A DNA stretch of 63,479 bases, the filler included. It is 6 parts of 6 records of this genome, joined end to end, with 100 filler letters (N's around TTAATTAATTAA, not from the genome) between each part and the next. Parts side by side here need not be neighbours in the genome. Positions count along the whole stretch, not along the records: positions 1 to 8,480 come from SRR20825006_2710; 5 more parts are not named here. The stretch is one strand, 5' to 3'. Numbering within the stretch: the stretch's first letter is position 1; every line of letters begins with the position of its first letter. The notes beneath the pieces were generated by a model that saw only the letters and a list, made by a program, of their open reading frames with translations, was not told the DNA's origin and searched no databases. Below are positions 1 through 23,560 of this stretch, in pieces. The translations under genes and the position numbers were made by a program.

Positions 1-65
1 GTTTTGTGACTTTTATGGGTGCATTTACAAGAAGCCTGTTAAATGCACCATAAAAAGCACATTTA
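1..65. repeat. Two abutting inverted transposon-end-like sequences (…ACA at 27-29, 7-bp spacer, TGT… at 37-39)
   Basis: Plus strand from 37 reads TGTTAAATGCACCATAAAAAGCAC. Minus strand from 29 reads TGTAAATGCACCCATAAAAGTCAC. Both start with TGT, as TnsB-family ends do, and lie ~130-160 bp downstream of tniQ. Confidence 0.6.
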
Positions 66-123
66 TGCGCGCTATGTGATTGTTTTTATTGCATTCGAGT
101 AGGACTGAAGCTTTGGTAAACAT

Positions 124-162
124 CATCCGATTCACCGGATGAAAGCATCTGATTCACCAAAT
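124..162. repeat. Direct repeat pair, putative internal TnsB-binding sites
   Basis: CATCCGATTCACC (124-136) and CATCTGATTCACC (146-158), 22 bp apart, between the TGT end and the tniQ stop. Confidence 0.45.
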
Positions 163-192
163 TCGGCCCTTCGCAGCTTTCTGGTCGAGCGA

Positions 193-2118
193 TCACCGAT
201 TTGGCCACTCGCGGGCAACGCGTTTTAGCTCCGAGATAGGGAAAGCTTTTTCATCCAGATTGTCGATGAGGCGCAACAGGTCCTTTCGCTGATAAAACCA
301 CGCGCCCATCCAAACAGGATCAGCAATCGGAAGAATTCCCGAATCCGCCATCAGTTTCTTGACCTCGACGTGTGAGATGCCAAGCAGCCTGCCGATAGCC
401 GCTGCCCTAATGTAGCGCTCTTGGAACCTCTGAAGTTCGATGCGTGAAAAACGGAGCTTGCCTTTCCGTTGCCGATACTCAGCTTGATCAACCTCATGCA
501 TCCAGGGGCCACCATGCTCTGGAGAAGCCAGCCGGCGCGGCGTAGAGGGCACAACTCCTAGTATAAGTGCCGCTTCGCTCGCTGAAATCGTATGATCCGG
601 GTCGAGCGTCTCTAATACAGCTTTCACCTCAGATGTATTAAAGCGCAGGTGATCAATTCTATTTATGCCTTTTATGATCTTGGTGTCCTTGAGTTCCCCC
701 TTCAATTGAAATTTCAGGATTTTCTCTGTAGATGACCTTCCGCAAGTTACGCCCCACAGCGAGAGATAACCTTCAACTTCGTCATCAATTTTGCCGCAGC
801 TATTGCATATATTCGCGAGGAATTGCTCCAGTTCCTCCTTCACGTAGCCTCCTGCGCGGATCCCATGCTGTCCCTCTGTTACAGGAATGATCGGACTGAT
901 AAGTCCCGAATGCGCCAATCTTTCAGCCTGCGTTTCGCTGCTTCCGAGAATAATTTGGACCTGCCGCAAGCTTACCGCCTCCTGAGTTCTCGCGATCACC
1001 TTTTCCGCTGCATCTGCCGGGAATGCCCAGCGGTTGAGAGAGGCACCTTTAGCTGTGGCCGGGAGCATGCCGGCTTTGCGCATCAGCATGGAAATCCTGC
1101 TTTTCGATATACCGGTTGCGCTCGCAAGCGAGTTGGCAGAGTGCATCCGCCGGACTGGTAATGTCTCTCCGAGCACGACCTCACCTGCTTCAAGGGCGAA
1201 GTTTTCCACAATGGCGGTCCTGAGGATACCTCGCAGTGGCTCCATGCCGTCGACCATGTTTCGCTTCTTCAGCCACCTGAAGAGATAGCCGTATGCTGCT
1301 TGAGGACCCGCGCGGCCGCTACTGCATCCGGATTCGATGCACAGTCGCTTGAACTCGGTCAGAATGGCGTCGGTTCCTGCCGAGTAAGTCTTGAAGCCGA
1401 CGTCCCCAACCCGCGCCCAATCGGAAGCCCCATACTCCTTGATTGGCGCAGTAGGACCGTCCGCCAAAAGAGATCCGAGCATTTCGGATGCCTTGACAAC
1501 ACCGGAGACAGTCTGAGAGCCTAGCCAATCTTCGCGCTTTTCAGTCGCGGAGAACCGCCTGGAAACGTACTGTTGCAGAAGGCCGGGACTTCTGTCGTCG
1601 GACGTTGCAATGACGCCGGGCTCAATGTCATTTAGCGCGAGCAGCTGCTCGATATCGAAGAGATCAATGCTGTCTTCACGGCGGAACTCAACGAGCTGAT
1701 TTTGGTGCAGCGCACAGCACACAAAGGGTCTCAGCAGCCATTGCCACCGAAACCTTAAAGAGCCCGGGTTCCAGCATGCCTGTGAACGGTCGTCAGCCAG
1801 ACACTCAAGACAGACGTTTACCGACCCACGCCGAACAAAAGGACGGTTAAAGGTTTCCCCGCGCAACGTGAAATTGCCATCAGGTTTTGCGACCAAAGTG
1901 TTATACCGAATATGCTCGGCTTCAACGCCGGACAATGCCGATAGGGCTTGTACGAAATCTTCGGTTCCGTCGCGGATATCCTTTACCCCAATATCCCAGT
2001 AGCCGCGAAATTGCGACAAACTGGCGCCAGTATGAAACTGGCCGGTCCGCGCAAGATAGCCTTGCGCGAGCTCGTCGTCATAAAAGGGAAGTTGCGGTTC
2101 CAACAGGGGGAGCGTCAT
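193..2118 (-). CDS. tniQ: TniQ/TnsD-family target selector with extended C-terminal HTH region (641 aa)
   Basis: N-terminal PFYDDELAQGYLAR motif, zinc-finger CLEC…W…CALH, ATGA overlap with the tnsC stop. Confidence 0.85.
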   Translation of the reverse strand: MTLPLLEPQLPFYDDELAQGYLARTGQFHTGASLSQFRGYWDIGVKDIRDGTEDFVQALSALSGVEAEHIRYNTLVAKPDGNFTLRGETFNRPFVRRGSVNVCLECLADDRSQACWNPGSLRFRWQWLLRPFVCCALHQNQLVEFRREDSIDLFDIEQLLALNDIEPGVIATSDDRSPGLLQQYVSRRFSATEKREDWLGSQTVSGVVKASEMLGSLLADGPTAPIKEYGASDWARVGDVGFKTYSAGTDAILTEFKRLCIESGCSSGRAGPQAAYGYLFRWLKKRNMVDGMEPLRGILRTAIVENFALEAGEVVLGETLPVRRMHSANSLASATGISKSRISMLMRKAGMLPATAKGASLNRWAFPADAAEKVIARTQEAVSLRQVQIILGSSETQAERLAHSGLISPIIPVTEGQHGIRAGGYVKEELEQFLANICNSCGKIDDEVEGYLSLWGVTCGRSSTEKILKFQLKGELKDTKIIKGINRIDHLRFNTSEVKAVLETLDPDHTISASEAALILGVVPSTPRRLASPEHGGPWMHEVDQAEYRQRKGKLRFSRIELQRFQERYIRAAAIGRLLGISHVEVKKLMADSGILPIADPVWMGAWFYQRKDLLRLIDNLDEKAFPISELKRVAREWPNR

Positions 2119-3146
2119 TTCTTGACCCTCCGCTTCCTGCCCGGCGTTTTGGGAGGGCTGCTGCCGTCATCCATGTCTCCGGACAACTGCGTTAAATCTG
2201 AAACGGAACTGGAAGTCACCGAGCTTGGTTGATAGTCGGCCCTGAAAGGGTTTTCTGAGTTGAAATGCAGGAATTGAAGATCGAAGACGGTCTCGAAGTC
2301 GGCAAGTTCCAGCGAGGAAGCCTCTTGTTCGAACGCCTGGATTACCGATGTTGCGATCAGGCGCATGCAACGACCATAGCTACCTCGACATCCGTCATAA
2401 ATCCGATCATGAAAATAGACGTCGCGGGTAATGCTGCGCGCAAGCTTCAGCTTGGCGCTTTCTGCATATTTGCTTACTGCAAGAGCTATCAGGTCAATGG
2501 CCTGTTTCCGCGAAAACGGATCCAGCCGAAAGTCGAGAAGCCGGCCGGCCAGCTCTTCATTTTCTGGCATCTCATAAATGAAGTCCCGCAGTTTTTCCGT
2601 GCCGATGACGATCAGGCATACGCCGCCCCCGTCCTGCAACAGGGTCTTCAGGAACAGATTTACCGGCTCGGACTTGCTTCTTAGAAGGTTGTGGACTTCG
2701 TCCAAAACCACAATTTTAACACCTGCCATTTTAAGACGATGCATTGCCAGATCATTGGCAGCCGCTCGCGTCGATCTCGGGTTAGTACCTTGAAACCCGG
2801 TGGAGCGGCAAATATCCATAGACGCGCTTTTGACAGTCGCATCGGTTCTCAAACGGCAATAGGCAATTTGCTTGCTGCTACTTATGACATCAATCGCTTC
2901 GCCGAAAAGCCGTTCCAGAACCTGCTGCACCAAGAAGGTTTTGCCTTCTCGTCCGGGGGCAGTGACCGCAATGCCCATTGATTCATTTTGAAAGCGCTTC
3001 GGCTCCGGCAAAAGTTTACCGGTTTCGTCCCTTTTTAGAACGAAGCCGAGCCTCTCGTAGAAGCTATTGTCCCAAGGGCTCATCATGTAGCGCTGGAGGA
3101 TCCAGTCAGCGGTTACGGGCGCTTTGCTGGTGTGAAGTTCAGTCAT
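2115..3146 (-). CDS. tnsC: TnsC/TniB AAA+ ATPase (probable start MTELHTSK at 3146)
   Basis: Walker A-like APGREGKT, Walker B IVVLDEVHNL, sensor IVIGT, ELAGR; lies between tnsB and tniQ. Confidence 0.85.
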   Translation of the reverse strand: MTELHTSKAPVTADWILQRYMMSPWDNSFYERLGFVLKRDETGKLLPEPKRFQNESMGIAVTAPGREGKTFLVQQVLERLFGEAIDVISSSKQIAYCRLRTDATVKSASMDICRSTGFQGTNPRSTRAAANDLAMHRLKMAGVKIVVLDEVHNLLRSKSEPVNLFLKTLLQDGGGVCLIVIGTEKLRDFIYEMPENEELAGRLLDFRLDPFSRKQAIDLIALAVSKYAESAKLKLARSITRDVYFHDRIYDGCRGSYGRCMRLIATSVIQAFEQEASSLELADFETVFDLQFLHFNSENPFRADYQPSSVTSSSVSDLTQLSGDMDDGSSPPKTPGRKRRVKK

Positions 3147-3150
3147 TGTT

Positions 3151-5427
3151 TTACTCCATTGTTCCAGATTGCCAGTTGGGCTTGGTGCGCCTTCCTGGTT
3201 GTTTCCGCGTCGGTTTCCGTTGCGGCTGATCATCCTCAGGCTCCACCGCACTTTCTTGTGTCACGGGACGAACGGGTGCCCCATAAAGGCCATGTGACTG
3301 ATCGCTGCTGATCTCGGTGCTGGGAGTGACGTAGTACCTGAGGGTCTCCTCTTCCCAGCGGGCGACCTCCTCGGCGGTCAGGGCTTTGCGCGCCACTTTT
3401 CGACTGGTGGCGATCTTCTCCTCAAGCATCGTATCGATCCTGCTTTGGGCCCTTTGACGGACCTCGTCGTCCGCAGGATTTCTCTTCAGGTATTCATGAC
3501 GGCGCAGAAGGTCCCATTCGTAGACAGAGATCCCGCGCGCGCGCCGGTCCATAACTTCGAGCGGCATCCACTCATTCGGCCGAATTTCGACCTGTATCTG
3601 GCTGATATCTTCTTCCCACCAGCGGACCCTGAAATCGCGATTGGGCTTCCGCAGGTACTCCTTCATGAAATCCTTCGAGGAATAGTCTGCATGCATGACC
3701 CGGATGCCGGTTTGCCGAGCTTTCCGCTTTAGTGTCGTGCCGAAAACATGAGTCATGGTTTTCAGGTCGGGGACAGGGCGGCATCCCATCCCGAGAGCCA
3801 TTTCATGCCGCCACAAATCGTTCGGCGTTAACCCGTCGCGACCAAAGCCGCTGCTGTTATGGTAGATGTCGACTACCCAAATTGTGATTACCTGGATCAG
3901 GTCATCCAGGGTCAGAATAGCCTCAGCTTCGGCATCGTAATCGCCGCGCTTGACCGTGTCGGAGAAAGCCTTGCCAGGAATTTTGGCGAGCAGCGTTTCG
4001 TGCAGAGTGCGGAATACTCGCTCCATCAAACCGCGAATAAAGGCCTTTGCTTTGGGCGCGGTCATGTTTTCGATACGCAATGACGCGCATAACATGTCGG
4101 TGCTACACGCTACGTAGGCACTCCCGGCATCGTGCAGGATCTTTTCTGGACGAAGCAGGTGATCCCAAGCACCTTCGGCCCCGCAGGCAGAGGCAATCTT
4201 CGTCTTGTCCATCAACGACATCATGATGGTGCGTTTGGCGAGATCGGGATCCGCCGTGGCGCGGATCTGTAGCCCCAGAATGCAGCCCGTATAGGCATCA
4301 AGCATTATAGACACGACCACGCGCAGGGGTTTGCTGCCGTCAATGCCGAGTTCCGCGACTTTTTGCTCGCCTAACCAATATATGAGGAATGCAAATGGAA
4401 TAATCGCGAAGACATCCGCCGTGTATTCATCGATCATGGTGATCTGGCCGGCGCGTTCGACCTGCATGCCTAGACCAACTGAAAGACAATTGCTTAGCAG
4501 CCAGTCTGGGCCACGACCTCGAAGCATTGCCTCCAGCGGGGCCAGTGATGCAACCCATTTACTGACAGTGCCGACCGATGGGGGACGTACATTCTGCAAT
4601 GCCTCCCACTCTGCCTCGGAAATATCCTCTCCATCGGCATCACGCCGAGATAGAGCCTCTTCCTGATCTTGCCTTTCTTGCTTGACGGCGTCTGATATGC
4701 CGCTGTGAACCGCCGCAATGGGAATTTGCTCAAGCGTAACCAACTCATCAATCTTCTGCCTGACGATGCGGGCGACATCAGGATGAAGCTTGCACTGTCT
4801 GTTTCCCGACAAATAACGATTGTCAGCAAGGCCGGAAAAGCCCTGGTCACGAAGCTTCTTGTCCCATTCAAGCAATGTCTGGGCGGTTGTCGAGTATTGC
4901 GGTGTCTTTCGGCGGCGAAACGGATGGCGCCTGCGGCCGTCGACCTTGGCGTTAAGCTCATCGATACGATGCGGCAACCGCGTCAGGATATCCGCTTCGA
5001 TCTTGCGAATTTCGCGCCTAGTCTTCGTGATTATGCCCTTTTCATCGCAGATTTCGCGCATGAGCATCACGCTGGCATACCGCAAGATTAAATCTTGCGC
5101 CGGCCGTTCCGCCAGCGACGCCACAAGCTCAGGCTTGAAACTCTGAGAATGGTCGATAAAGACATGGTCGTCCTCATCGATCTCCAGGCTCCCATCGAGG
5201 AGCCCGCCATACAGTTCGGAATGCGGCAGGATTTTTCTGCCGACAAATTCGATATCAGGACGCGTTCCGCGTAACGTTTCCGGGACGTTCTGCGCTTCGG
5301 GGTCAGGGAGAAATTCAACCAGGTGGCCGTTGTTTGCAGCATGGAGAAATTTGATCTTCCTGTGCCCGAACCGTCCGACCGTGCCGAACTCAAAGCGAAA
5401 GACGGTTCCGTTCTGCGGGTCACTCAT
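3151..5427 (-). CDS. tnsB: TnsB/Mu-family DDE transposase (probable start MSDPQN, overlapping the tnsA stop)
   Basis: DDE motifs MIDEYTAD, ILHDAGSAY, GLMERVFRT; DIYHN; C-terminal Mu-type beta region; AGGAGG RBS. Confidence 0.9.
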   Translation of the reverse strand: MSDPQNGTVFRFEFGTVGRFGHRKIKFLHAANNGHLVEFLPDPEAQNVPETLRGTRPDIEFVGRKILPHSELYGGLLDGSLEIDEDDHVFIDHSQSFKPELVASLAERPAQDLILRYASVMLMREICDEKGIITKTRREIRKIEADILTRLPHRIDELNAKVDGRRRHPFRRRKTPQYSTTAQTLLEWDKKLRDQGFSGLADNRYLSGNRQCKLHPDVARIVRQKIDELVTLEQIPIAAVHSGISDAVKQERQDQEEALSRRDADGEDISEAEWEALQNVRPPSVGTVSKWVASLAPLEAMLRGRGPDWLLSNCLSVGLGMQVERAGQITMIDEYTADVFAIIPFAFLIYWLGEQKVAELGIDGSKPLRVVVSIMLDAYTGCILGLQIRATADPDLAKRTIMMSLMDKTKIASACGAEGAWDHLLRPEKILHDAGSAYVACSTDMLCASLRIENMTAPKAKAFIRGLMERVFRTLHETLLAKIPGKAFSDTVKRGDYDAEAEAILTLDDLIQVITIWVVDIYHNSSGFGRDGLTPNDLWRHEMALGMGCRPVPDLKTMTHVFGTTLKRKARQTGIRVMHADYSSKDFMKEYLRKPNRDFRVRWWEEDISQIQVEIRPNEWMPLEVMDRRARGISVYEWDLLRRHEYLKRNPADDEVRQRAQSRIDTMLEEKIATSRKVARKALTAEEVARWEEETLRYYVTPSTEISSDQSHGLYGAPVRPVTQESAVEPEDDQPQRKPTRKQPGRRTKPNWQSGTME

Positions 5428-6106
5428 CTCCGACACCTCCTGTCACTACAAAGGTATCGAGCGTGATCTTTTCCTTCTTGATTTGCTTGAGTTGCCCCGA
5501 GTGAAGGCGCCGAACCAACGCTCGAAACCCACGTGGGCCCCGGTCAATCTCAAGGACCAGGTCACGCATAGTACGGGGCGCCGTCATATTCAGGATGACG
5601 TCTAGGGCAATTTCGTCGACCTCAGGCTCATCATCGCGGCAGCCGCGCATGAGATCTGCATTGTGAAGGTCGATCGGATCACGAGCATATTCGGTGACGA
5701 GATAGAGTTCATCGATGATGCCCCGTCGCTTGGCCTCGGCACAAACCTGGGAAATCTCGCATTCGAAATCCGGATGCACCCGGCGGTAAGGCTTGTCCGT
5801 AAATCCCAGGCGCCGCCCGTTTCTCTTGATCGCGACATGATCGAGGAAATGGGAATGCGTCTTCCCTTTCCTGTCTTGCCAGGCGATCGGGCCAACCTGC
5901 TCGAGCACATCAACCGTATCAGGGTCTGCGAGCATGAGCAGTCGTGTGCGATATTCACCCAGACTGCCGCAGCGGGTAATCCGCCCCGGATTCGCATCGC
6001 TGTCATTGATAACCAGTCCAACCACGAAATGTCCGTGAGATGCGGAGGGGATCGGTTTGCATGCGCGTGATGGTCGCGGTTCATTCCATTCGTATGTCGT
6101 TGTCAT
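5420..6106 (-). CDS. tnsA: TnsA-like endonuclease-fold protein
   Basis: S(LG)E…DPD…VLEQ…HFLD…KP layout plus C-terminal winged helix; first gene of the operon. Confidence 0.75.
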   Translation of the reverse strand: MTTTYEWNEPRPSRACKPIPSASHGHFVVGLVINDSDANPGRITRCGSLGEYRTRLLMLADPDTVDVLEQVGPIAWQDRKGKTHSHFLDHVAIKRNGRRLGFTDKPYRRVHPDFECEISQVCAEAKRRGIIDELYLVTEYARDPIDLHNADLMRGCRDDEPEVDEIALDVILNMTAPRTMRDLVLEIDRGPRGFRALVRRLHSGQLKQIKKEKITLDTFVVTGGVGDE

Positions 6107-6156
6107 TTTTCAAGCCAAAGCTTCCCTGCTCGAAGGCGCACTTCGAGTAATAAACG

Positions 6157-6260
6157 TTGACCGGTGGGCGGAAATCGACTAGAAAGATATCGGAAACAAT
6201 TGGTCGGCCCAGCCGGCTATTTAGATCGGGCCCGGATATTTGCCGTATCCGGGCTTTTTC
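6157..6260 (+). ncRNA. Candidate ~70-nt counter-transcribed sRNA with promoter and intrinsic terminator, opposite the tnsA leader
   Basis: TTGACC-17bp-TAGAAA (6157-6185); hairpin GGTCGGC/GCCGGCT; 9-bp stem GCCCGGATA/TATCCGGGC (6230-6254) followed by a T-tract. Confidence 0.4.
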
Positions 6261-6789
6261 TATTCTCCCTACATGGCAGCCCCCATTTCCCAAGGGTAAA
6301 TACCCTCGTTCATTGCGGAACGAGCGCCCCAAAGGTCTCGGAAAACACTGCCAATGCGCACGACTGCCTGCGAGAGGCAGATGTACGGAACACGGCTGGT
6401 CAATCGTCTATTAGGATAGTTTCGGGACATCGTTACCTATAAAGCTAGCACGACCGCCAAGTTGTCTTGACAGTCTGGAACTCTCGCGTTCTGATTGCAC
6501 GTATCTAGCGAAAGTTGTGGTGGCTTTTCAGGTGGTGCCCAATAACATGATGATGGTGTCCCCCACTAGGACCAACAATGAAACGTCCTAGCTTCGTGGA
6601 GCCGTGCAAGCTCCGTGACGGCAGTGATCTTACTAAGTGATTGATTTCGAGTCGAATCATTTTTGAATCTTTCGTGTTAGTTGCGACCTGAGTTGAGTTT
6701 TCGTGGCCGGCCGGCCGGCAGCAAGTCGCAGGAATGTCCCTGAAAACCTAACCGATTTCGATTTCAGACGGCATTTTGCGATCGCGCCG

Positions 6790-7863
6790 TCAATGCAGCA
6801 TCGGTCGGTTTTCCAGCCTATCCGCTCGCTCAAGCATTCGGATGACTGACCTGAGGCTCAGCGCCGGTTTTCTGTCGGCATTCTTCTCGATGACTTCGGT
6901 GATGATCTGGATCGAATTCTCCGACAATCCACGGCGCCGCCCTTCCTGTCTGGCGAAGGCGGTGAGAGCCGGTGTGCTGAGCTCAGTCAGGTTGATGGTG
7001 ACGAGCCGGCTTAACAGCGGCTCCGACACCCCGTCGAGGCTGTTTGCCGTCAGGATCCAGCCAACCCAGCGCATGTCGAAACGGAGTTGATAGAAGGGGC
7101 ACTCCCATCGTCGCGATGTCTCCGGCTCCAACAAGGGCAGCAGACTGTCGGCAAGGCTGTGCCGCTCTCCCCGGGTGGATATGACCGCGGTTGCTTTCTC
7201 GATCTCATCAAGGGCTACGATTGGGTTGGCGACCAGGTGGCTTATGACTGTCTCGAGCGGCTTGCCGGCATGAGCCGAACTCCACCCACGTTGCACGCCG
7301 CCGACTGAAAACGAAGACTGCTCCACGGTGGCATCGATCGTGCGCAGCGGCACATCGAGTGCCGTACTGACCCTGCGCGCCCAGGTGCTTTTGCCAATTC
7401 CAGGTGGACCGACCAGCAACATCGGGGGAAGCCGGAAACCGGGATCATCCCGGCGGACCTGAGCTCGCATTGCATGCCAAACGTGCTCTGTAGCAGGGGC
7501 CATCCACGGCATTTCCGTATGCAGTGCGGATGCTATCTCGTCCGCCCGTGCTTCGGTTTCGATTCGGTGTAATGCAACACCGTCCGAAAGCATCTCGATC
7601 TGCTGACGCTCGTCGGTCTTGAGATGCGAAAATCCGGAAGCTCTGTGGCGGTTCTGTTCAATTCTGTTGACCCGGCGCCTGATGCGCGCATGATCCTCAC
7701 GGGTGACAGTGTCAGTGGCTCTCTGCCAGTCCTCCTTTTCCCGTTCTTCCGGCGAGAGCTTTGCCTCCCGAAGCTTTCGAAGGTGCTCTTCGAAACGGCG
7801 TGTGACCTCGATGGCATTGAGGGGCTCGAAGAACCGGGCTTCGACAAAGGGTATGCGGGTCAT
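6790..7863 (-). CDS. Stand-alone Lon-type AAA+ ATPase (no Lon N-domain or protease domain)
   Basis: LLVGPPGIGKS Walker A; NPIVALDEIEK Walker B; LLPLLEP; TANS…PLLSRL. Confidence 0.85.
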   Translation of the reverse strand: MTRIPFVEARFFEPLNAIEVTRRFEEHLRKLREAKLSPEEREKEDWQRATDTVTREDHARIRRRVNRIEQNRHRASGFSHLKTDERQQIEMLSDGVALHRIETEARADEIASALHTEMPWMAPATEHVWHAMRAQVRRDDPGFRLPPMLLVGPPGIGKSTWARRVSTALDVPLRTIDATVEQSSFSVGGVQRGWSSAHAGKPLETVISHLVANPIVALDEIEKATAVISTRGERHSLADSLLPLLEPETSRRWECPFYQLRFDMRWVGWILTANSLDGVSEPLLSRLVTINLTELSTPALTAFARQEGRRRGLSENSIQIITEVIEKNADRKPALSLRSVIRMLERADRLENRPMLH

Positions 7864-8440
7864 GGGTACTCAAGCTGACGATGATAGGCGGGACGAATAC
7901 TGAGGAACAGTGATGCGGAGGGTGGATATTCGGGGCCAGGATGTGGCCGCTTTCAAACAGGAGGCCGGATAGCACCAATATCGATCGCTTTGAAAGTCCT
8001 GATTTGTCCACATAAATAATTGAATACATTGAATTAATGTGAAAAATTAAACTCCATCTTGTTGGCAGGCAAAGACCCGGGTGGTGTGTATGTGAAACAG
8101 CTGTGCGAATATCCGAAACGAGTTCGGAATTTCTCATCGCATGGTCAGACGCATACCCTGAAAGAGCGGCCATCTGAGGTTTTCGCATTTCGTCTGATTG
8201 GCCGGCTGGTTGGACGAGGCAGCCGTCGCCATACTGAGAAGTAATGTGAAAATCAGAATGCCATTCGCATCTTCAGCAGCCGTTTGAGACCCACGGCAGA
8301 GGTCGCTCAAACCAGGTTCCGTGAACCGTGGTTAACGGGACGTTGACCGGCATTGGTTTCGATGTGACATGCAGTTGAAATGATCTGCCTGCCTATCCAC
8401 TCCACTCGATCTCGCTTCTCGCTTTGCAAATGTGAACATC

Positions 8441-8480
8441 ATGCCCGTTCTGATCACCGCCGACCTGCATCTCGACCAAT
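8441..8480 (+). CDS. Metallophosphoesterase, N-terminal fragment truncated by the contig end
   Basis: MPVLITADLHLDQ matches the calcineurin-like first motif (hhh-D-x-H); only 13 codons are visible. Confidence 0.6.
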
Positions 8481-8580
8481 NNNNNNNNNNNNNNNNNNNN
8501 NNNNNNNNNNNNNNNNNNNNNNNNTTAATTAATTAANNNNNNNNNNNNNNNNNNNNNNNNNNNNNNNNNNNNNNNNNNNN
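8481..8580. other. Artificial contig linker (N44-TTAATTAATTAA-N44); same linker at 15225-15324, 29197-29296, 43445-43544 and 56238-56337
   Basis: N runs around an all-frame stop sequence; composition changes and genes are truncated at each junction. Confidence 0.98.
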
Positions 8581-8724
8581 GTCAAAGTAGGTCATCGCCA
8601 AAGCACTCGCCAGGTTGTTAAAAACAAAGCGTAATACAGAGTCCAGCGTTTCGATGAATAGCTTGGATAAAAGGCGGGATCGAGAGAATTAGCGGGGCAC
8701 AGACGGATAAATCGCTAATTTTAC

Positions 8725-9096
8725 CTAGCGACGCTGTAGGTTAATTTCGCGGACTTTAATTTCACTACTTGTAGAGAGTTCACGAAGAATATCAATAGAG
8801 TGCTGGGCAGCACTGATCTCCTCTGCACTCAATGAGTTGTTACTTTCTCGTTCTTTGATTACCTGCTCTATAGCGCGTGCCGCTTGACTGACTTCATCTA
8901 TTCCCAGTACCCCAGATGTTCCGGCAATCGTATGGGCTTGGCGATAGATATCTTGTAATGTCTCTTCCTTAGGTTGAGCCAAGTTACTCGTCCAGGCCTC
9001 AACCAATTGCGTTACCCGCCCGGGTAGTTTTTTAATGTAGTCGCGTTGTAGTTGCCGCAACTCTTCATTTATATCTTGGTGTGATGGGTTAGGCAC
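8725..9096 (-). CDS. Hpt (histidine phosphotransfer) domain protein
   Basis: AHTIAGTSGVLG Hpt motif; overlaps the receiver gene. Confidence 0.9.
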   Translation of the reverse strand: MPNPSHQDINEELRQLQRDYIKKLPGRVTQLVEAWTSNLAQPKEETLQDIYRQAHTIAGTSGVLGIDEVSQAARAIEQVIKERESNNSLSAEEISAAQHSIDILRELSTSSEIKVREINLQRR

Positions 9097-9487
9097 GGTG
9101 AAAATCCTCCCATATATCCTTCAATTTTTGCGCCATATCCATTGGCTCAAAGGGCTTACTAATCACTGCATTTGCGCCCAAGCTGAGTAGCTGATCGACT
9201 TCGTCAGCTTGCACCTTCGCGGTGATAAATACGATAGGTGTGTTTTGATATTGCTCGTTATTGCGAATTTCTGACAGCACACTGGGGCCGTCCATACCGG
9301 GCATCATGACATCCAATAGTATTAGCTGGGCCGGGAATGTTTCCAGCGTAGCGAGGCCTTCTGGTCCGCTTGCACAGCAGCGCGTGTCGAGGCCGCCTAT
9401 CGTTTTTAAGGCGATATCGGCGACGATTCGAATGTCCTCTTCGTCTTCAATATAAAGTACGCGTTCTAGGCTTTCATTGTGTGACAT
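9089..9487 (-). CDS. Single-domain response regulator (CheY-like)
   Basis: YIEDEED, LILLDVMMPGMDG, ITA, SKPF. Confidence 0.95.
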   Translation of the reverse strand: MSHNESLERVLYIEDEEDIRIVADIALKTIGGLDTRCCASGPEGLATLETFPAQLILLDVMMPGMDGPSVLSEIRNNEQYQNTPIVFITAKVQADEVDQLLSLGANAVISKPFEPMDMAQKLKDIWEDFHRA

Positions 9488-10640
9488 TGTAAGCCCCTGT
9501 CCGGTCCTTTTTACGCAAGTCGATATAAAACTCGGTGCCGTTTTTTACGCTGGAATTGAAGCTGAGTTCCCCCTCATGGTGCTCGACAATCGCTTTAGAT
9601 ATATGCAACCCCAAACCAGTACCACCGATAGCGCGTTGGTTGGAGCTATCCGCTTGGGTAAACTTTTCAAAAATATGAGGTTGGAACTCCTCGGGTATAC
9701 CTTTACCTTGGTCTTTCACGACGATTCTTATGCCGTGTTCAGTCTCTTCTGCTGAGACATACACTTCGGTGTTCAACGGTGAGAATTTCGCAGCGTTAGA
9801 CAATAGGTTGCTCATTACTTGCATCATTCGGTCAGGGTCGACATCGATACTCAGGTGGTCGGGGCACTCGCCCAGCACATAGCGCACCTGGTATTTGTCA
9901 CCGTAAACACGATTGTCGCTGATAGCGGTTTCCAAAAAGGATCTTAGCGGGATGCGGGTGATGCGATATTGCATCTTCTCCGACTCGATTTTAGAGATAT
10001 CGAGGATGTCGTTAATAAGTAAAAGCAGGCGCTCGCTATTTTTTTGGGCGATATCTATGAGTGCTTCACTTTTTTCAGGATCATTGGTCAACGCGCCTGA
10101 CTTGAGAATGTCCAGAGAAGCCTTGATCGACGTCAGGGGCGTGCGTAGCTCGTGACTGACGGTCGAGATGAATTCGTCTTTGATGCGTTGCTCATGAACA
10201 CGCCGCATTGCCTCACGTAGCTTTTCTTCTGTGTCCTTACGTTCTGAAATGTCTCGAACGATGCCGGTAAACATCCGTTGGCCCTTGATCAGCATTTCGC
10301 TGACGGCGAGCTCCATCGGGAAAACATCGCCGTTTTTGCGTTGGCCGCGTACCTCTCGACCGATATCAATGACTTTTTTGGTGCCGGTGGTCAGGTAGCT
10401 GTGAATGTAACCATCGTGTTCTTCGCGGTAGGGGCTTGGCATCAACATACTGACATTGCGGCCAACTAATTCCCGGGTTTGATAGCCAAATATCCGCTCT
10501 GCAGCAGGGTTTACAGTATCGATAAGCCCTTGATTATTAATCGTTATAACGCCGTCGACCATCGTTTCTAGAATGGCCTTGCTACGATTTAGCAAATCTG
10601 CAACAGCATCGGGTTTTGGCATCGAATTCAGATCATACAA
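9474..10640 (-). CDS. Cytoplasmic PAS (FixL-like) sensor histidine kinase; start may be the ATG at 10622
   Basis: PAS motif LMPSPYREEHDGYI; H-box SHELRTPL; N-box NLLSNAAKFS; G1 DQGKGI; G2 GGTGLGL. Confidence 0.92.
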   Translation of the reverse strand: MYDLNSMPKPDAVADLLNRSKAILETMVDGVITINNQGLIDTVNPAAERIFGYQTRELVGRNVSMLMPSPYREEHDGYIHSYLTTGTKKVIDIGREVRGQRKNGDVFPMELAVSEMLIKGQRMFTGIVRDISERKDTEEKLREAMRRVHEQRIKDEFISTVSHELRTPLTSIKASLDILKSGALTNDPEKSEALIDIAQKNSERLLLLINDILDISKIESEKMQYRITRIPLRSFLETAISDNRVYGDKYQVRYVLGECPDHLSIDVDPDRMMQVMSNLLSNAAKFSPLNTEVYVSAEETEHGIRIVVKDQGKGIPEEFQPHIFEKFTQADSSNQRAIGGTGLGLHISKAIVEHHEGELSFNSSVKNGTEFYIDLRKKDRTGAYNVTQ

Positions 10641-10724
10641 TCAGTAGGGTTGCCACGGTGTCATATGAGCTTAGTGCTTGTCTCACAAGGCTTTAACTGG
10701 GAATTGTACTTACCGAATAAGGCC

Positions 10725-13700
10725 TTAATGGAAGTCGTGAGAGTCCACATGTAGCGGGAAGAGCGCGCCGATATCACGCAGGGTGTGTGCGATGATGTGC
10801 GTCACTCTACTACCTGTCTGTTGGTCACTGTGCTGTATTTCACCCGTCACTTCCAGTATTCGCGCCGACAGGATGGCCTGGCGGTTTTCCGCTTGTTTCG
10901 CTGGCCACACAATGACATTGATGTTCCCAGTGTCATCTTCGAGTGTCATAAACAGTACGCCAGAAGCACTACCGGGGCGTTGCCGGCAACTGACGATGCC
11001 CGCAACGGTCAGCCATTGGCCATCTTTAATATCGCTCAGGCGAGCCGCTTGCTGATAGTGTTCGCAATACCCTTCACTGCGTAGCCACGCCATAGGGTGG
11101 CGACGGAGGCTTAGAGAGTTGTAGGCATAGTCATGTTGAATGTTCTCTTTCTCCGAGGGTATCGGTAGGGTAGCGGGTGCTTCAGTATTGTGGGTTTTGA
11201 CTAGCTGGCCGCTACCGCGGTGCTGCTGTATGTACCAATAGCTGCGGTAGCGATCTATTTCGAAGTCGTGAAATACATCGCTGCGCGCAAGTAGGTTGAG
11301 TTGGCTTGTGCTGAAATCGCCCTCACTGCGAAGTCGCTGAAGGCAGCTCTCCACTGAGGTAAACGCTTGTTGCTGGCGTAGCTGGCAAAGTGCTTGTGCG
11401 CTTTCATGAGACAGCCCCTTGATGGTTCGCAAACCGAGGCGAATTGCAGAGCGTTCTTTTTTAAATACCACACGGTGTTCCCAGTCGCTGTGGCAGGCAG
11501 AGACTGGGAGAATGGCTACGTCGTGCCGCTGAGCGTCCTGACAAAGCTGAGAAACAGAATAGAAGCCCATCGGCTGGCTATTGAGTAAGCTGCAGTAAAA
11601 GGCGGCAGGATGGTGACACTTGATCCAGGCCGAGGCGTAGGCGAGGAGAGCAAAGCTCGCTGAATGTGACTCTGGAAAACCGTAGGCACCAAACCCTTTC
11701 ATTTGGCTGAATAAGCGCTCTGCAAAGTCGAGGTCGTAGCCGCGCTCAAGCATGCCGTTCACCAATTTATCTTTAAAACCCGCTAAGTCGCCATTCTTCC
11801 CCCAGCTGGCCATTGCCCGCCGTAATTGGTCAGCTTCACCGCCGCTAAAGCCGGCGGCGACCATGGCAAGTTGAATCACTTGTTCCTGGAATATGGGCAC
11901 CCCGAGAGTGCGCTTGAGTACTTTTTCAATCTCCTTGTTTGCGTAGTGCTCGGCTTCTAAACCTTGCCGACGACGAAGGAAGGGGTGCACCATACCGCCC
12001 TGGATGGGGCCAGGACGTACGATCGCTATTTGAATCACTAAATCGTAGAAGCAGCTAGGTTGAAGGCGGGGAAGCATGGTCATCTGTGCCCGGGACTCAA
12101 TCTGAAAGACCCCAATACTGTCTGCGCGTTTGAGCATGGCATAGGTCTCTGCATCTTCTGCAGGGATATCACTTAGCCTGATATCTGTGCCCGCGGCATC
12201 ACTGATATACCGCAGGCTTCGGCGCAAGGCGCTTAGCATTCCTAAGGCCAAGATATCAATTTTCAACATGCCCAAGGCTTCCAGGTCGGACTTGTCCCAT
12301 TGAATAATGGTGCGCTCGGGCATGGCGGCATTTTCCTGGGGCACCAAGGTATTGATCGGCTCACGACTGATAACAAAGCCGCCAACGTGTTGAGACAAAT
12401 GCCGGGGGAATCCGATAAGGGCATTGACCGCATCGATGAATTGCTGGCCGCGGTGATCCGATGTGCTTATACCCAGCTCACTGAGGCGCAGGGCTAAGCT
12501 GCTTTGGTTGTCCCACCACGCCATATTTTTACTGAGCTGGTTGATGAGCTGGGTGTCCAAGCCCAGTGCCTTGCCCACATCGCGCACAGCGCTTCGGCGC
12601 CGGTAGCTAATAACGGTGGCAGCTAAAGAAGCATGGCTGCGACCATACTTGCGATAGATGTATTGAATCACTTCCTCTCGGCGCTCGTGTTCGAAATCGA
12701 CATCGATATCCGGAGGTTCATCGCGCTCCCGAGAGATAAAGCGTTCAAATAGCAGTTCGCTCCGGCTTGGGTCGACTTCCGTGATGAATAAGCAAAAACA
12801 CACTGCTGAGTTTGCTGCCGAGCCCCGGCCCTGGCAGAGGATGCCCTGGCTGCGGGCAAATTGGACGATGTCGTAGACAGTGAGGAAATAGTGCTCATAG
12901 CGTAGCTCAGCAATGAGGCTTAGCTCTTTATCAATGCTGCTCTGAACATCGTCTGGAACACCTTGCGGCCAGCGTTTCTCGGCGCCCATTTGGGTCAGCT
13001 CACGCAAAAATGCTGTGGCACTTTTTTCCTTGGGCACCAGCTCGGCGGGGTATTGATACTTTACTTCTTCCAAGTCGAACTGACAGCGAGCGGCAAGTTT
13101 GTCGCTTTCGTCTAACAGGGCCTGAGGGTAGTCGCGCGATAATAGCTCCCTAGGTTTTATATAGTATTCGCTATTCATCAAGGTGTTTCGGCCGAGTTGG
13201 TCAACGGTTGAATGCAGGCGAATAGCGCGAAGCACATCGAATAGGGGGTGGCGGCTGCGGCAGTGCATCAAAATATGGGGTGTGGCCACAAGCGGAAGTT
13301 GGTAGCGGCACGCCAGGTTATAGTGTTTGAGGTAATACGCTTCCTGTTGGGCAGTGCAGTGCAGCGCGACACCCAGCCACAGGCGAGCTGGGAACAAGGC
13401 CTTTAAATCCTTCAACCCAGTTGCGTCACATTTACTTTCAGGAAGATAGATCGCGAGTAGGTGCCGGTTAAAGCGCTGAAGCGCCTCCATGCTCAGGGCA
13501 TAATTGCCTTTGGCGCTATGCAAACGGCTGTAACTGATGAGTGAGCATAGCTCGCTGTAAGCTTGCCGACAGGGCGCGACGAGCAGCAGTTGGAATCCTT
13601 CCTGAAACTGGAAACGTGCGCCGCATATCAGCTTGATATTTGCTTCTTTGGCCGCTTGCCAGGCCCGCACTATTCCCGCCAGAGAAGCTTCGTCACACAG

Positions 13701-13808
13701 GGCGATTGCTTTGTAGCCATTCGCCTCGGCTTGGGCAACCAGCTCCTCCGGATGAGATGCCGCGCGTAAGAAACTGAAGTTGCTCTGACAGTTCAGCAGT
13801 GTGGCCAT
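10725..13808 (-). CDS. dnaE2: Error-prone DNA polymerase DnaE2 (start MATLLNC at 13808, 1027 aa)
   Basis: SNFSFL…SHPEELV, GRGSAANS, PPDIDVDFEHERREEV, YGFPESH, C-terminal SHDFH. Confidence 0.96.
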   Translation of the reverse strand: MATLLNCQSNFSFLRAASHPEELVAQAEANGYKAIALCDEASLAGIVRAWQAAKEANIKLICGARFQFQEGFQLLLVAPCRQAYSELCSLISYSRLHSAKGNYALSMEALQRFNRHLLAIYLPESKCDATGLKDLKALFPARLWLGVALHCTAQQEAYYLKHYNLACRYQLPLVATPHILMHCRSRHPLFDVLRAIRLHSTVDQLGRNTLMNSEYYIKPRELLSRDYPQALLDESDKLAARCQFDLEEVKYQYPAELVPKEKSATAFLRELTQMGAEKRWPQGVPDDVQSSIDKELSLIAELRYEHYFLTVYDIVQFARSQGILCQGRGSAANSAVCFCLFITEVDPSRSELLFERFISRERDEPPDIDVDFEHERREEVIQYIYRKYGRSHASLAATVISYRRRSAVRDVGKALGLDTQLINQLSKNMAWWDNQSSLALRLSELGISTSDHRGQQFIDAVNALIGFPRHLSQHVGGFVISREPINTLVPQENAAMPERTIIQWDKSDLEALGMLKIDILALGMLSALRRSLRYISDAAGTDIRLSDIPAEDAETYAMLKRADSIGVFQIESRAQMTMLPRLQPSCFYDLVIQIAIVRPGPIQGGMVHPFLRRRQGLEAEHYANKEIEKVLKRTLGVPIFQEQVIQLAMVAAGFSGGEADQLRRAMASWGKNGDLAGFKDKLVNGMLERGYDLDFAERLFSQMKGFGAYGFPESHSASFALLAYASAWIKCHHPAAFYCSLLNSQPMGFYSVSQLCQDAQRHDVAILPVSACHSDWEHRVVFKKERSAIRLGLRTIKGLSHESAQALCQLRQQQAFTSVESCLQRLRSEGDFSTSQLNLLARSDVFHDFEIDRYRSYWYIQQHRGSGQLVKTHNTEAPATLPIPSEKENIQHDYAYNSLSLRRHPMAWLRSEGYCEHYQQAARLSDIKDGQWLTVAGIVSCRQRPGSASGVLFMTLEDDTGNINVIVWPAKQAENRQAILSARILEVTGEIQHSDQQTGSRVTHIIAHTLRDIGALFPLHVDSHDFH

Positions 13809-13815
13809 GGCGCTT

Positions 13816-15224
13816 TCAGGAAAAAAAGCCGTGCAGGTACCACTGCTGACTGAGGCAGTCTTTAAATAGCCAGCACAGGCCGTGGTCATGGTGTCGGGCG
13901 ATGTAGTAGTCGCGAACCTGGCGTTGCTGCCACCAATTACTATCCAGGCGTTCTGGGCCCTGAAGTATTTCAAGGGGGCCCTGCCAGACCAATCCGGTGG
14001 TAGTGCGTTGAACCGGCAGAGGCGTCGGCAACAGCAAACTGGGCCTGAGCGCTTCACTGCTTGCCTCGTCGTCACGGTGTTCGCAGTTATAGTCGCTTAC
14101 GGGGCACGCAACGCCTTGTTGTTCCGGTAACACTCGGTCGTCTATCTTCAACTGTTGAAGCGCATTGTCACCTAGGCGCAGCTGCAAGCTGTTGATTAGG
14201 CGAAGTTGGGCGTCACTCTGCTCGGTGGCTTCTCTATGCTCGTCAAAAAGTTGCTGTTTGGTGGCTTCCAGGCTGACAAACTCTCTGCATTCCAAAGTAA
14301 TACCTTCTACAGCGCCAGCTAAGGTAAACCCTTCCAGCTGCAGAGCGATGAGTTCGAGAAGGTTTTTCCGGTGAAAGTGGCGGTGATTAACCGGCGTTTT
14401 CCAGTGCTGGCGTTCGCCGCTCAAATAGTGGAAGGTCCAGTGCAGGTCACGGTTTAAGCACTGGCGCAGACGTAAATAGACCTCTAGCTCTTTGAGCATG
14501 GCAGACATCGGAAAGCGCAGCTGATCACTCTGAAATAAGCCGCCATCAAACTGACGTTCACTGACAAAAACGTCAGCGGGTTGGTAGCGCTGTCTTGGGT
14601 CCTGCTTGCGCCCAGTTAGGCGGGCGACAAAGTCGGCCATAACCGGGTCGAAGCTGCTCAACAGTTGCTTGCGCGGCAGGTTAAGAACATCCCCTAGTCG
14701 CCTCAGGCCCATATTGTGCAGCGCTTCTAATTGGGCGCTTGGCAGCGGGAGCTGGCGGCAGGGTAGTGACGCCAGTGCGCGTTTTAGTGCATCGCGTTTG
14801 AGCTCGCCCTCGGCATTTACTAGATGAGCGGGGCGAATGCCTTGCAAGCTTAAGAGTTCTGCTGCCAAAGGGGTATTGCCCAGGCCAATATTTAACTGTA
14901 AGCCGCGTTTTCGATAGGCTGAAAGCAGGGCGCGATACAAACGCTGCAAGTTGCCAAATAGCTTGAGCGAGCGGCTCACCTCCAATAAGAGTGCGTTGGG
15001 CGGCGATAGACTGATGTCGTCGCTGAAGCGATAGGCCCAAAGAGCCAGGCGCTGCCAGTGGGCCTGTTCGCACTCGCTCTGCTGCGGTTGGCAGTAGAGC
15101 GAGGGGCAAAGCGCTAAAGCAGTGGTTAACGACATTCCCTCGGTAACGCCCGCGAGCCTGCTAGCGGCGTTCACCAGTGACACCTGTTGCTGTGCAATCA
15201 GGGCGCAGGGCTCGCTCAGCGGTG
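13816..15224 (-). CDS. imuB: ImuB Y-family polymerase-like protein, 5' truncated by the contig edge
   Basis: GMSLTTALALCP; C-terminal RP..L…GPERL…WW…RDYY…W.LHGFF; directly upstream of dnaE2. Confidence 0.92.
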
Positions 15225-15589
15225 NNNNNNNNNNNNNNNNNNNNNNNNNNNNNNNNNNNNNNNNNNNNTTAATTAATTAANNNNNNNNNNNNNNNNNNNN
15301 NNNNNNNNNNNNNNNNNNNNNNNNCTCCCTAACTTCCTGTTTGGGGCGGCATTTGCATGCCATTTCTCAGTCAGGCGCGTGTCCCGTTTTTTTTATATTT
15401 ATACTTCTTTATAAGGCAATTCTGATGCTGAAAACAATAGGGCGAATTCGAACTTCTCAAATGAGCCCAAAAATCCCCGTATTGCGCGACAGAAAACGCA
15501 ATCCAAAACACATGCGACGCCATTAATACAACCATAGATGCATACACGTTGATTTAAGGACCCTATCCAAGTTCTGCTTTGACGAGAAC

Positions 15590-16210
15590 TCAGCGATACG
15601 ACCGGGCAATAGAATCACTAAGCCGCCCCAAAAGGACACTCATGGCAGCGACAGTTGCCTCGGTTGTTGTATCCTTGGGAACCACGGAATCGGTAAACCG
15701 TTCGGATACGGCGGTTTCACCCGAATTGAAATTGACAATTTTCCAGCGCGCTGCGATCTGCACCGAACCGTCCGGCTGACGTTCGAACTGTCCCAGATCG
15801 ACCACGATCTGCCAGACAACCCCGTCGCGCGAGTTCCACGGGAATGTCTCGATCCGCTGCGGGCTCAACCGATGGTCAAGGTTTTCGATCAACACCCGCT
15901 GAATGTTTTCATCCAGCGGCTCGGCCCAGCGATCAAACTGGTTGATCACCAGCCGGTTGTCACTACTGCGCGTCACAATCTGGCTGCGATCAAGATGGCT
16001 TGGGATGGTTATCGGTCCCACCCCCATCACCGCCGTTCGGGTGGCCCCCGACGGGGCTGCAACATCGTCGGGGGATAACAGATAATAACGTTCCTGAACC
16101 GGTGTGCTGCACGCGGACAGGAAGCCAAGCGATGCCAATAACACCCCCGCGATCAGTCGCTTGCGAATTGTCGCCGTTGTTTTCGGTTTCATTTGCATTT
16201 CCCGCATCAT
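15590..16210 (-). CDS. pqiC: PqiC-family membrane-integrity lipoprotein
   Basis: Lipobox LSAC; YYLL; LDRSQIV; RWAEPL; follows pqiB. Confidence 0.9.
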   Translation of the reverse strand: MMREMQMKPKTTATIRKRLIAGVLLASLGFLSACSTPVQERYYLLSPDDVAAPSGATRTAVMGVGPITIPSHLDRSQIVTRSSDNRLVINQFDRWAEPLDENIQRVLIENLDHRLSPQRIETFPWNSRDGVVWQIVVDLGQFERQPDGSVQIAARWKIVNFNSGETAVSERFTDSVVPKDTTTEATVAAMSVLLGRLSDSIARSYR

Positions 16211-17892
16211 TCTTCCTCCCGGCGGCCCGGTTTGCCCAGGATCAGAGCATTCGGATTTTGTTCAAGGAAATCGGCCAGATCCCGCAACGACCTGGCTGCC
16301 GCCGAAAGCTCTTTCAGAGTTTCCTCAAAATTATAGCGGATCGGCGAATTCGGCGATGTCACGTCACGTACACCGCCAAGTGCAACCTGCGCGGATTCCA
16401 GCGCCTTCTGAGTGGCTGGCAACACGCTGGTATCAAGGTTCGTCACAAGCTGGTTCACCCCGGCAGCTGCCTGTTTCAGGCTATCCATGCTCTCAATGAT
16501 CGCAGGCGATGTAACAATGTTCTCCATCCCCTCGACAGTCCCCAACAGTCGAATGCCGATTTCCTCAATCGGGAATGTTTCAACCTTTTCAAGCAACGAG
16601 GACAGGGAATTGCTGATCTCATCGATCTTTTGCGGCAATGTCGGCAATTCTGGAATTTTCCCCTGCGCATCGCCCAGATAGCGGGGCGGCGTCACCGGAT
16701 ACATGCCCAGATCAACAAACAGCTGGCCGGTTATAAAGCTCCCGGTTTTCAGACGTGCCCGCAAACCACGTTCGACCAGAACATCCATGATCTTCGCATA
16801 ATCGACATCGGCGGTGTCCTGATTGCCGACCATTTGCACCCGTTCGGGCTCCAGCGTCACTTCAACAGGCACCCGGAACGATTGATTGGGAACGACATAT
16901 TCCAGATTGACGCTGTTGACCGTGCCGACGCGAATGCCATTGAATTCAACCGGCGCGCCGGGCGAAAGCCCGCGTACAGAGGAATCGAAATACAGCATGT
17001 ATTTCTGCGTGATGCCATACGCCAGAATTTCCGCCTGTTTACGGCTGTCGTTTAACCGGAACACCGTATCGGGTTTCGCTGTTTCCGAATTCAGGCTTTC
17101 GTCAGGCGTATAGAAATTGATGCCACCGGCCAAAACTGATCGAACAGATTGGGCACGCACCGATACGCCTTCCGCATTCAGATCAAGACTGATGCCGCTG
17201 GAATTCCAGAAACGCGTATCGCGCTTGACCAATCCATCAAACGGCTTGCGGACATAGATCGGGATCGACACCTTTTCGGCCGCGGAATCCAGATTGGTAT
17301 CAAGGACCTCGCCAACCTCTACCCCGCGCAGAAGAACCGGCGTTCCCGACGCGACTGAACCAAGTTCCTCCGCCATCAGGATAAACCGTGTTCCGTCCGA
17401 TCCATCAGGCACATATTCCGGTTCTTCCGATCCGGTAAACTCGCGGGCCTCTTGGCCAGACCTGTCTGGAACCGCTTCGATATAAGCCCCTGAAACGATG
17501 GTCTGAAGGCCGGAAATCCCCTGTGCGGAAACGCGCGGGCGTACCACCCAGAATTTGGTTTTATCGGTCAGATAGGGTTCAAAATCCGAATTCATCCGCA
17601 TCGTCAGAACCACATGCCCGAAATCCTCGCTCAGATTGATTTCGGTAACCTGTCCGACATCAACATCACGATACCGCACGGCGGTTTTGCCCGCGGTCAG
17701 TCCCTCGGCCGTTTCGAACGTCACGGTAACTTCTGGTCCTTTGGCTGCCGCATCGCGCCATAAAAGCCAACCGCCGATGATTAACGCGACAATCGGCACG
17801 ATCCAGATGACCGGCAGGTTCTGAAATGCCTTTTTCACATCGGGCCTGCCTGGCTGCCCCTGACCGGCATTCCGGCTGGTGTCGTCCGTCAT
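16207..17892 (-). CDS. pqiB: PqiB MCE-domain intermembrane transport protein
   Basis: WIVPIVAL TM segment, three MCE domains, helical C-terminus ending in PNALILG. Confidence 0.93.
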   Translation of the reverse strand: MTDDTSRNAGQGQPGRPDVKKAFQNLPVIWIVPIVALIIGGWLLWRDAAAKGPEVTVTFETAEGLTAGKTAVRYRDVDVGQVTEINLSEDFGHVVLTMRMNSDFEPYLTDKTKFWVVRPRVSAQGISGLQTIVSGAYIEAVPDRSGQEAREFTGSEEPEYVPDGSDGTRFILMAEELGSVASGTPVLLRGVEVGEVLDTNLDSAAEKVSIPIYVRKPFDGLVKRDTRFWNSSGISLDLNAEGVSVRAQSVRSVLAGGINFYTPDESLNSETAKPDTVFRLNDSRKQAEILAYGITQKYMLYFDSSVRGLSPGAPVEFNGIRVGTVNSVNLEYVVPNQSFRVPVEVTLEPERVQMVGNQDTADVDYAKIMDVLVERGLRARLKTGSFITGQLFVDLGMYPVTPPRYLGDAQGKIPELPTLPQKIDEISNSLSSLLEKVETFPIEEIGIRLLGTVEGMENIVTSPAIIESMDSLKQAAAGVNQLVTNLDTSVLPATQKALESAQVALGGVRDVTSPNSPIRYNFEETLKELSAAARSLRDLADFLEQNPNALILGKPGRREEE

Positions 17893-19175: not shown

Positions 19176-19326
19176 TCAATCTTCCTGTTTCCATAAGGCA
19201 TTAGCGCACAATCTGGAAGTCATATGAGTAAGCGGCAGAATTCATCCCCTGTCAAATCCGATTGGCAAAGCCAATGGGTGGGCATGCCATATCGCCAAAC
19301 CCGAAAACAAACGCGATCCCAACCCT

Positions 19327-21136: not shown

Positions 21137-21196
21137 GTAAAAATGAATAATCGATGTGATTAAACATTTTTTGTGAAAAATAGGGATTCGGGCGGC

Positions 21197-21775: not shown

Positions 21776-21853
21776 GGTTTCCCCCGAAAATCGTTATTGG
21801 GGAATAGCCGATCAATCGGGATTGATCAATATGACAACGGCAGCCAAAAACGG

Positions 21854-23556: not shown

Positions 23557-23560
23557 TCGC

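Follow-up and report, generated by a model that had tools for sequence, protein, structure and literature searches.

A head-to-tail junction of two Tn7-like transposon ends, probably formed by repeated insertion behind an HNH-endonuclease gene

The window (the whole stretch of DNA analysed, 63,479 nucleotides) is a pseudomolecule in which six contigs (1-8480, 8581-15224, 15325-29196, 29297-43444, 43545-56237 and 56338-63479) are joined by five identical 100-nt linkers (44 N, TTAATTAATTAA, 44 N). Genes on either side of a linker are not necessarily genomic neighbours, and the six contigs, the first included, may stem from more than one organism; their G+C content varies between 52.4% and 62.6%. 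The first contig carries part of a transposable element, which begins a few dozen bases from the contig start, and next to it the tip of a second end (Table 1).

Table 1 Positions of the transposon ends, genes and artificial linkers in the window
Feature	Position	Strand	Basis or remark
End-A, terminal 29 nt (TGTAAATGCACCC...)	1..29	-	resident element or relic; points away from the window's element
AG, probable target DNA between the resident End-A and the new insertion (2-bp offset)	30..31	.	comparison with run contigs
AAGCC, End-B-side copy of the 5-bp target site duplication (TSD) of the window's element	32..36	.	same 5 bp flank the HNH-side End-A
End-B (tniQ-proximal end), terminal TGT	37..160	+	homology to the M. 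limonii and G289 elements and X1 stops at 37
End-B terminal site AATGCACC	42-49	+	motif search
End-B internal repeats GATTCACC	129-136 and 151-158	+	motif search
tniQ/tnsD-like target selector, 641 aa, TniQ + HTH_17	193..2118	-	Pfam TniQ 1.1e-13, HTH_17 6.1e-08
tnsC/tniB AAA+ regulator, 378 aa	2115..3251	-	Pfam AAA_22 3.9e-10, TniB 1.2e-07
tnsB-family DDE transposase, 761 aa	3151..5436	-	phmmer against the PDB
tnsA-like endonuclease (predicted), 228 aa	5420..6106	-	AF2 model and Foldseek
Cargo AAA ATPase, 357 aa	6790..7863	-	Pfam AAA 5e-12
Artificial linkers	8481-8580, 15225-15324, 29197-29296, 43445-43544, 56238-56337	.	not element sequence

The stretch from 193 to 6106 is a Tn7-like transposition module with the gene order tnsA-tnsB-tnsC-tniQ. 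Its target selector is of the TniQ/TnsD type and carries the HTH_17 match at the C-terminus, and the matches of the AAA+ regulator to the TnsC/TniB families lie above the 22.4-bit cut-off. The transposase was assigned to the TnsB family by phmmer searches against the PDB, which matched TnsB of Tn6677 (2.7e-17), the TnsA-TnsB fusion of PseCAST (4e-16), a ShCAST-type TnsB (1.9e-09) and TnsB of Tn7 (2.5e-06); its Pfam matches were weak and below threshold (rve 0.11, Mu-transpos_C 0.23). The 228-aa protein had no match in Pfam and no sequence match in the PDB. Its AF2 model, built from 28 sequences with a pLDDT of 81.2, gave only four Foldseek matches in the PDB at E<=0.001, all of them to entries containing Tn7 TnsA (two chains of 1t0f, 1f1z and one chain of the TnsABCD-DNA transpososome 9bw1; best 1.6e-06, TM 0.41-0.48), and its Atlas features point to TnsA-like clusters. 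Judged by the modelled fold, the protein is a predicted TnsA, which supplies the endonuclease of a Tn7-like element. The operon lies at the att-distal end of the element and is read outward, the tniQ stop codon being 156 nt from the terminus. The same layout was found in the related copy of Martelella limonii and in the inner element of a second genome, G289.

At the tniQ side of the module, TGTTAAATGCACCATAAAAAGCAC is read at positions 37-60 of the plus strand, and TGTAAATGCACCCATAAAAGTCAC is the reverse complement of positions 6-29; the two arms are separated by the spacer AGAAGCC at 30-36. The sequence-only reading had described an end at 37 and a near-identical inverted arm across this spacer, and both its coordinates and its letters were correct. 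The repeat search recorded the arms as an inverted pair (I10; arms 10-27 and 40-57, 18 nt, 83%), and their gapped alignment had a local score of 16; of 5000 windows placed at random with this geometry, one reached the score. The similarity is not a matter of chance: positions 2-29 match one terminus of the M. limonii element and 37-8480 match its other side. RATKCACC motifs are found in End-B at offsets 6, 93 and 115 and in End-A at offsets 5 and 60. These repeats, lying in asymmetric ends as in other Tn7-like elements, are putative transposase-binding repeats. A weak terminator-like hairpin followed by a T run lies on the minus strand at 56-73, inside End-B and downstream of tniQ, and may mark the end of the tns operon transcript.

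A scan of species genomes with the TniQ sequence yielded one close relative, in M. limonii NBRC 109441 (98% TniQ identity). That genome has two copies of the arm motif in inverted orientation, separated by 19.6 kb; one site, opening with TGTAAATGCACCCATAAAAGTCAC, is End-A, and the other is the tniQ-side End-B. The element between them is 19,615 bp long, starts with TGTAAATGCACCC (End-A), finishes with ...GGTGCATTTAACA (End-B) and has CTCGG on both sides. The window matches it from 37 to 8480 with 95.8% identity over 8,448 columns, the alignment halting exactly at base 37, and positions 2-29 equal its End-A tip (100% over 28 nt). Matches of the M. limonii element and its flanks to the window were confined to these two intervals. 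The two arms at 1-65 are thus two different ends, End-A and End-B, and form a left-end/right-end (head-to-tail) junction. The earlier proposal that two Tn7-like ends are joined here stands, with the correction to its term 'head-to-head' that they are not two copies of the same end. Position 8480 had been regarded as the element's far side; the contig in fact ends there, in front of a linker and 40 nt into a metallophosphoesterase gene (8441-8480); the M. limonii element continues for about 11 kb past the corresponding point. Searches for a second copy on the other window contigs (tblastn with five proteins) returned only the element's own genes, and megablast of 1-8480 against the plasmid collection gave no match.

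The End-A of the M. limonii element lies 21 nt past the stop codon of a conserved gene encoding a 185-aa HNH endonuclease, which is present in 14 of 14 species genomes of the genus. End-A follows this stop codon after 19-21 nt in four of the 14 (G002, G289, G410 and G365), one (G408) has a degenerate End-A relic after the gene, and in the remaining nine End-A is absent. A metagenome contig (L043) contains the HNH gene, 21 nt and an End-A identical to window 1-29, base 1 included; in G405 unrelated sequence comes after the same 21 nt, which represents the matching empty site. End-A faces the HNH gene at 18-21 nt past its stop codon in G002, G289, G410, G365, L043 and the public runs X17-X19, the distance being 18 nt in X17-X19 and 19-21 nt elsewhere. 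The window's own intergenic sequence (the AGAAGCC site) occurs in 0 of the 14 genus genomes, and an empty site of its own species was not found among them. The nearest genome compared (G001) shares 30% of the window's words and lacks the element (0 matches). It provides no usable empty site, since its HNH orthologue shares only 67% identity with that of Martelella and is followed by different downstream sequence.

Solo End-A relics were found in G410 (about 150 nt, L074) and G365 (about 29 nt, L052/L065). The TnsB query gave no match in either genome, which indicates that End-A tips persist at the HNH site as relics; for the same reason these two genomes are no test of a second stacked junction. 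The short end motif was matched in 14 of 401 family genomes, and among the matches inspected the real ends were the places in G002 and G289 and one of 12 further loci (L052, from G365). Scanning metagenomes with 20 nt of End-A gave six stretches, of which one was a true end (L043) and five were unrelated, and the scan for an End-A/End-B junction with 2-12 nt in between gave 0 stretches.

Parts of window 1-3000 were detected in 19 public sequencing runs, and three runs of one study contained 95-100% of the sampled words. Logan contigs from the runs X17, X18, X19 and X1 were aligned to 1-8480; X17-X19 are contig sets of about 210-260 Mb rather than single bacterial genomes. One Logan contig covers window 1-6836 in both X17 and X18 with 0 differences and at a word depth of 180 and 159, respectively. 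Its first base is exactly window base 1 and it is unbroken at 30-37. End-B therefore has a single left context in these two runs, which counts against an integrated single copy plus a circle and also against two identical copies. Logan works with words of 31 letters, and both the Logan contig and the window contig stop at base 1 because bases 1-30 are a repeated word in the 31-letter graph. The sequence in which this word is repeated was seen in X17, X18 and X19: another contig is common with window 1-30 and then continues with AGCC and a sequence whose reverse complement, ...GAA CTG GAA CCG TGA, encodes ELEP-stop, the 3' end of the HNH gene as in M. limonii. In X19, with a depth of about 5, no listed contig crosses 30-36, and coverage of this stretch is too thin for use. 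The metagenome X1 contains a close relative of the element, differing in 4 of 980 letters, with other sequence before base 37, which confirms the element boundary at this position.

End-A is accordingly found in two contexts. In the first one, read in X17-X19, it is followed by AAGCC, 13 nt and the HNH stop codon, and in the second one by AG, AAGCC and End-B. Since AAGCC adjoins both End-B and the HNH-side End-A, the window's element is integrated with a duplication of AAGCC, one side of which was read in the window and the other in the X17-X19 contigs; a 5-bp match has a chance of about 1 in 1024. The two contexts could lie in different cells, and we infer their linkage in the same cell. The depth of one bin (1-283), taken with an assumption as to which contigs aligned there, weakly suggests that End-A has about twice the depth of each junction. 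A second variant of 6785-8480, differing in 5 of 242 and 8 of 256 letters, was also seen in X17 and X18 at a depth of 240-300, and a second variant of 37-6785 is absent from these runs at a likeness of at least 95%. The samples therefore contain a related element, or the remnant of one, that lacks an identical tns module. It may, as a conjecture, be the left neighbour of the junction.

The junction is best explained by repeated site-specific insertion at one hotspot with a 2-bp offset, and we consider this explanation probable. It belongs to a known kind of event in the Tn7-like family and its mechanism is not new. Read from the gene, the pre-insertion site would have consisted of the stop codon, 13 nt, GGCTT, CT and the resident End-A, which would have been 20 nt from the stop codon. 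In the order that we infer for the two insertions, the newcomer would have used +14 to +18 as its 5-bp target, leaving two bp to the resident End-A. The window's element would thus have inserted between the HNH gene and the resident End-A, with its own End-A towards the gene and with AAGCC duplicated, and the resident End-A would have been left 7 bp from the new End-B, that is, 2 bp of leftover target and the 5-bp duplication. The positions +14 to +18 and +20 are within or beside the 19-21 nt spread of other genomes. TniQ would read the end of the HNH gene and set both the position and the orientation of the insertion, like TnsD at attTn7, and target immunity would not have stopped the second insertion. 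This last point counts against stacking, as canonical Tn7 immunity should prevent an insertion at only 2 bp from an end already in place (PMC11014353).

A tandem stack at a hotspot with a 2-bp offset was one of the two readings offered from the sequence, and it agrees with the run contigs: the AAGCC at 32-36 is the 5 bp found at the HNH-side End-A, and AG is left over. The wording 'stack of elements' may overstate the case, since other species have relics of about 16, 29 and 150 nt at the HNH site and the left neighbour could be a short End-A relic of this kind. It may also be a whole element; the contig stops at base 1.

A parallel locus was found in G289, whose TniQ is 90% identical to that of the window. 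The locus (L036/L037, G289:C1:3602296-3617163) consists of nested elements within a 4.37-Mb contig. Read from the gene, the HNH stop codon is followed by 16 nt, ATTGT and the outer End-A, which is 21 nt past the stop codon. The inner element (12.3 kb, with intact genes and GCCGC on both sides) lies 184 bp from the outer End-A. The decayed outer element keeps End-B and two tniQ fragments, after which ATTGT appears again, so that this element has ACAAT on both sides. Directly after the duplication at the outer End-B comes GAATGCACCCATA, which together with the TGT of the duplication matches the End-A tip in 15 of 16 positions. The sister genome G408 has the same 16-nt relic straight after the HNH gene and lacks the element, which corresponds to the pre-insertion state. 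Taken together, the relic in G289 and the bare relic in G408 indicate that the G289 newcomer inserted between the gene and an older relic, with a 3-bp overlap. This chromosomal architecture is the same as that of the window's junction. The distances of the insertions to the resident End-A are 2 bp in the window, 0 bp (3-bp overlap) for the outer G289 element and 184 bp for the inner one; such cases, as rare survivors in genomes, are no measure of target immunity.

The first alternative to be weighed is an excised circular copy, in which End-A would be joined to End-B across 7 bp of flank and the HNH-side End-A would come from another element. The geometry of the junction fits a transposon circle, End-B is without a chromosomal left context in X17 and X18, where the 1-6836 contig is unbroken, and the second variant of 6785-8480 in these runs speaks for a second related element somewhere. 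We nevertheless consider this alternative unlikely. The match between the AAGCC on the End-B side and that at the HNH-side End-A is predicted by an integrated copy and would be a coincidence for a circle; a circle junction would be accompanied by no matching duplication at the outer sides, whereas AAGCC is present at both sides of the element. The element also encodes a TnsA-fold protein. TnsA and TnsB of Tn7 excise a linear element via double-strand breaks. In insertion sequences of the IS3, IS30 and IS256 families, circle junctions likewise consist of two abutted ends with a spacer of a few bp; these circles are intermediates of copy-out transposition by elements with a single transposase, and a promoter is often created at the junction. 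In contrast, the search for a sigma-70-like promoter across the junction found 0 sites here, the spacer holds a full 5-bp duplication matched at the other end of the element, and the same abutment of End-A and End-B is chromosomal in the finished-size 4.37-Mb contig of G289. The circular-form junction, which had been the second of the two readings offered, is thus disfavoured by the AAGCC match and the G289 parallel. It is very improbable that the culture contained the window's element solely in free circular form while a related element filled the HNH att site; if true, this would mean that a Tn7-like transposon encoding TnsA has a circular form.

A tandem dimer of two identical copies, arising by duplication or unequal exchange and not by a second transposition, would account for the head-to-tail orientation and for End-A termini that are identical over at least 29 nt. 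However, it predicts a second context of End-B and a contig break near 30-37, where the contig is unbroken, and it predicts double depth over 37-6836, where the depth of 180 is the same as in the variant-specific pieces at 7033-8324 (175-211). Unequal exchange would moreover leave exactly the 5-bp duplication and not 7 bp. We regard a dimer as very unlikely. An assembly or concatenation artefact at the contig end deserves mention because artificial linkers join the contigs of the window and the junction falls within the first 36 bases of its contig, a region in which overlap sequence is left by graph assemblers. Yet the junction is physically present in independent Logan contigs of two runs (0 differences, depth 159-180), the arms differ from each other, which excludes a hairpin artefact, and the spacer follows the logic of a target site duplication, all of which makes an artefact extremely unlikely. 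The reading of the arms as a palindrome (terminator or res site) inside an element whose true boundary lies elsewhere, for which the location 156 nt downstream of tniQ and the weak hairpin at 56-73 of the minus strand could be quoted, is refuted by the M. limonii, G289 and X1 loci and hardly worth considering, since homology with M. limonii, both G289 elements and X1 stops at 37 with a different flank each time, M. limonii and both G289 elements bear 5-bp duplications, and End-A stands beside End-B in none of them save through the stacking in G289. The comparison of homologous ends and duplications that the sequence-only reading had put forward as a check thus turned out in favour of true ends: End-B meets unrelated flanks in M. 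limonii, G289 and X1, duplications are present wherever both sides are visible, and the arms, which should have stayed together as a palindrome if the reading were wrong, are apart in the homologues.

By its sequence-level features the element is a Tn7-like transposon. It has in common with Tn7 at attTn7 a TnsA-fold protein, a TnsB-family transposase, an AAA+ TnsC/TniB regulator and a TniQ/TnsD-like selector. It further shares TGT...ACA termini (seen in the window, M. limonii and G289), asymmetric ends with repeated internal motifs, and 5-bp duplications (CTCGG in M. limonii, GCCGC and ACAAT in G289, AAGCC for the window's element), as well as insertion in one orientation at a constant short distance downstream of a conserved gene. 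This gene is glmS in Tn7 and the HNH-endonuclease gene here. The tns operon of Tn7 is next to the att-proximal right end and read inward, whereas the operon described here is att-distal and read outward towards End-B. According to what Parks and Peters in 2007 and Peters et al. in 2014 reportedly described, Tn7-like elements and end relics stack into islands at one att site, and the locus resembles such islands in having successive elements and leftover ends beside the attachment site.

Passages of PMC11014353 describe Tn7 as strongly immune to a second insertion, in contrast to the insertions found here, whose distances to a resident End-A are 2, 0 and 184 bp. The same source reports, in the parts concerned with Tn6022/AbaR-type elements at comM of Acinetobacter baumannii, insertions within or beside resident kin despite measurable immunity (PMC11014353). 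These elements are similar to the one studied here in inserting within or beside a resident element of their own family, but they use TniQ plus TnsF, insert inside comM and have other ends, hosts and att site; no TnsF-like gene was seen among the ORFs of 1-8480. Immunity was also reported for an archaeal Tn7-like element in the section concerned of a preprint (bioRxiv 10.1101/2025.07.27.667033). An att site at an HNH gene was not found in print, the term 'HNH' being absent from the main text of the Tn7 surveys PMC8649781 and PMC10293859. One preprint contains the terms 'HNH endonuclease', 'att site' and 'Tn7-like' together. No literature joining 'Tn7-like' and 'Martelella' was found.

The results define a Tn7-like lineage of Martelella-type Alphaproteobacteria with exact ends, a 5-bp target site duplication, an att site at the HNH gene and an att-distal tns operon. 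The newcomers at 0-2 bp from a resident end provide material for questions about the strength or specificity of target immunity in this lineage, and as natural cases they also bear on the way in which stacked elements and end relics build islands.

The module boundary at 6785, where the second variant of X17 and X18 begins and from which it matches rightwards only, lies just before the AAA-ATPase gene. In X1 the stretch 6289-6785 is swapped for 1018 other letters. Related elements seem to exchange the AAA-ATPase cargo module. The part of the M. limonii cargo that is absent from the window (L004 460-11532) includes a 1203-aa YobI-like P-loop NTPase matching the PADLOC Tmn model (1.4e-70), a metallophosphoesterase and a 2045-aa protein without a Pfam or PADLOC family. 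This cargo is probably of a defence type.
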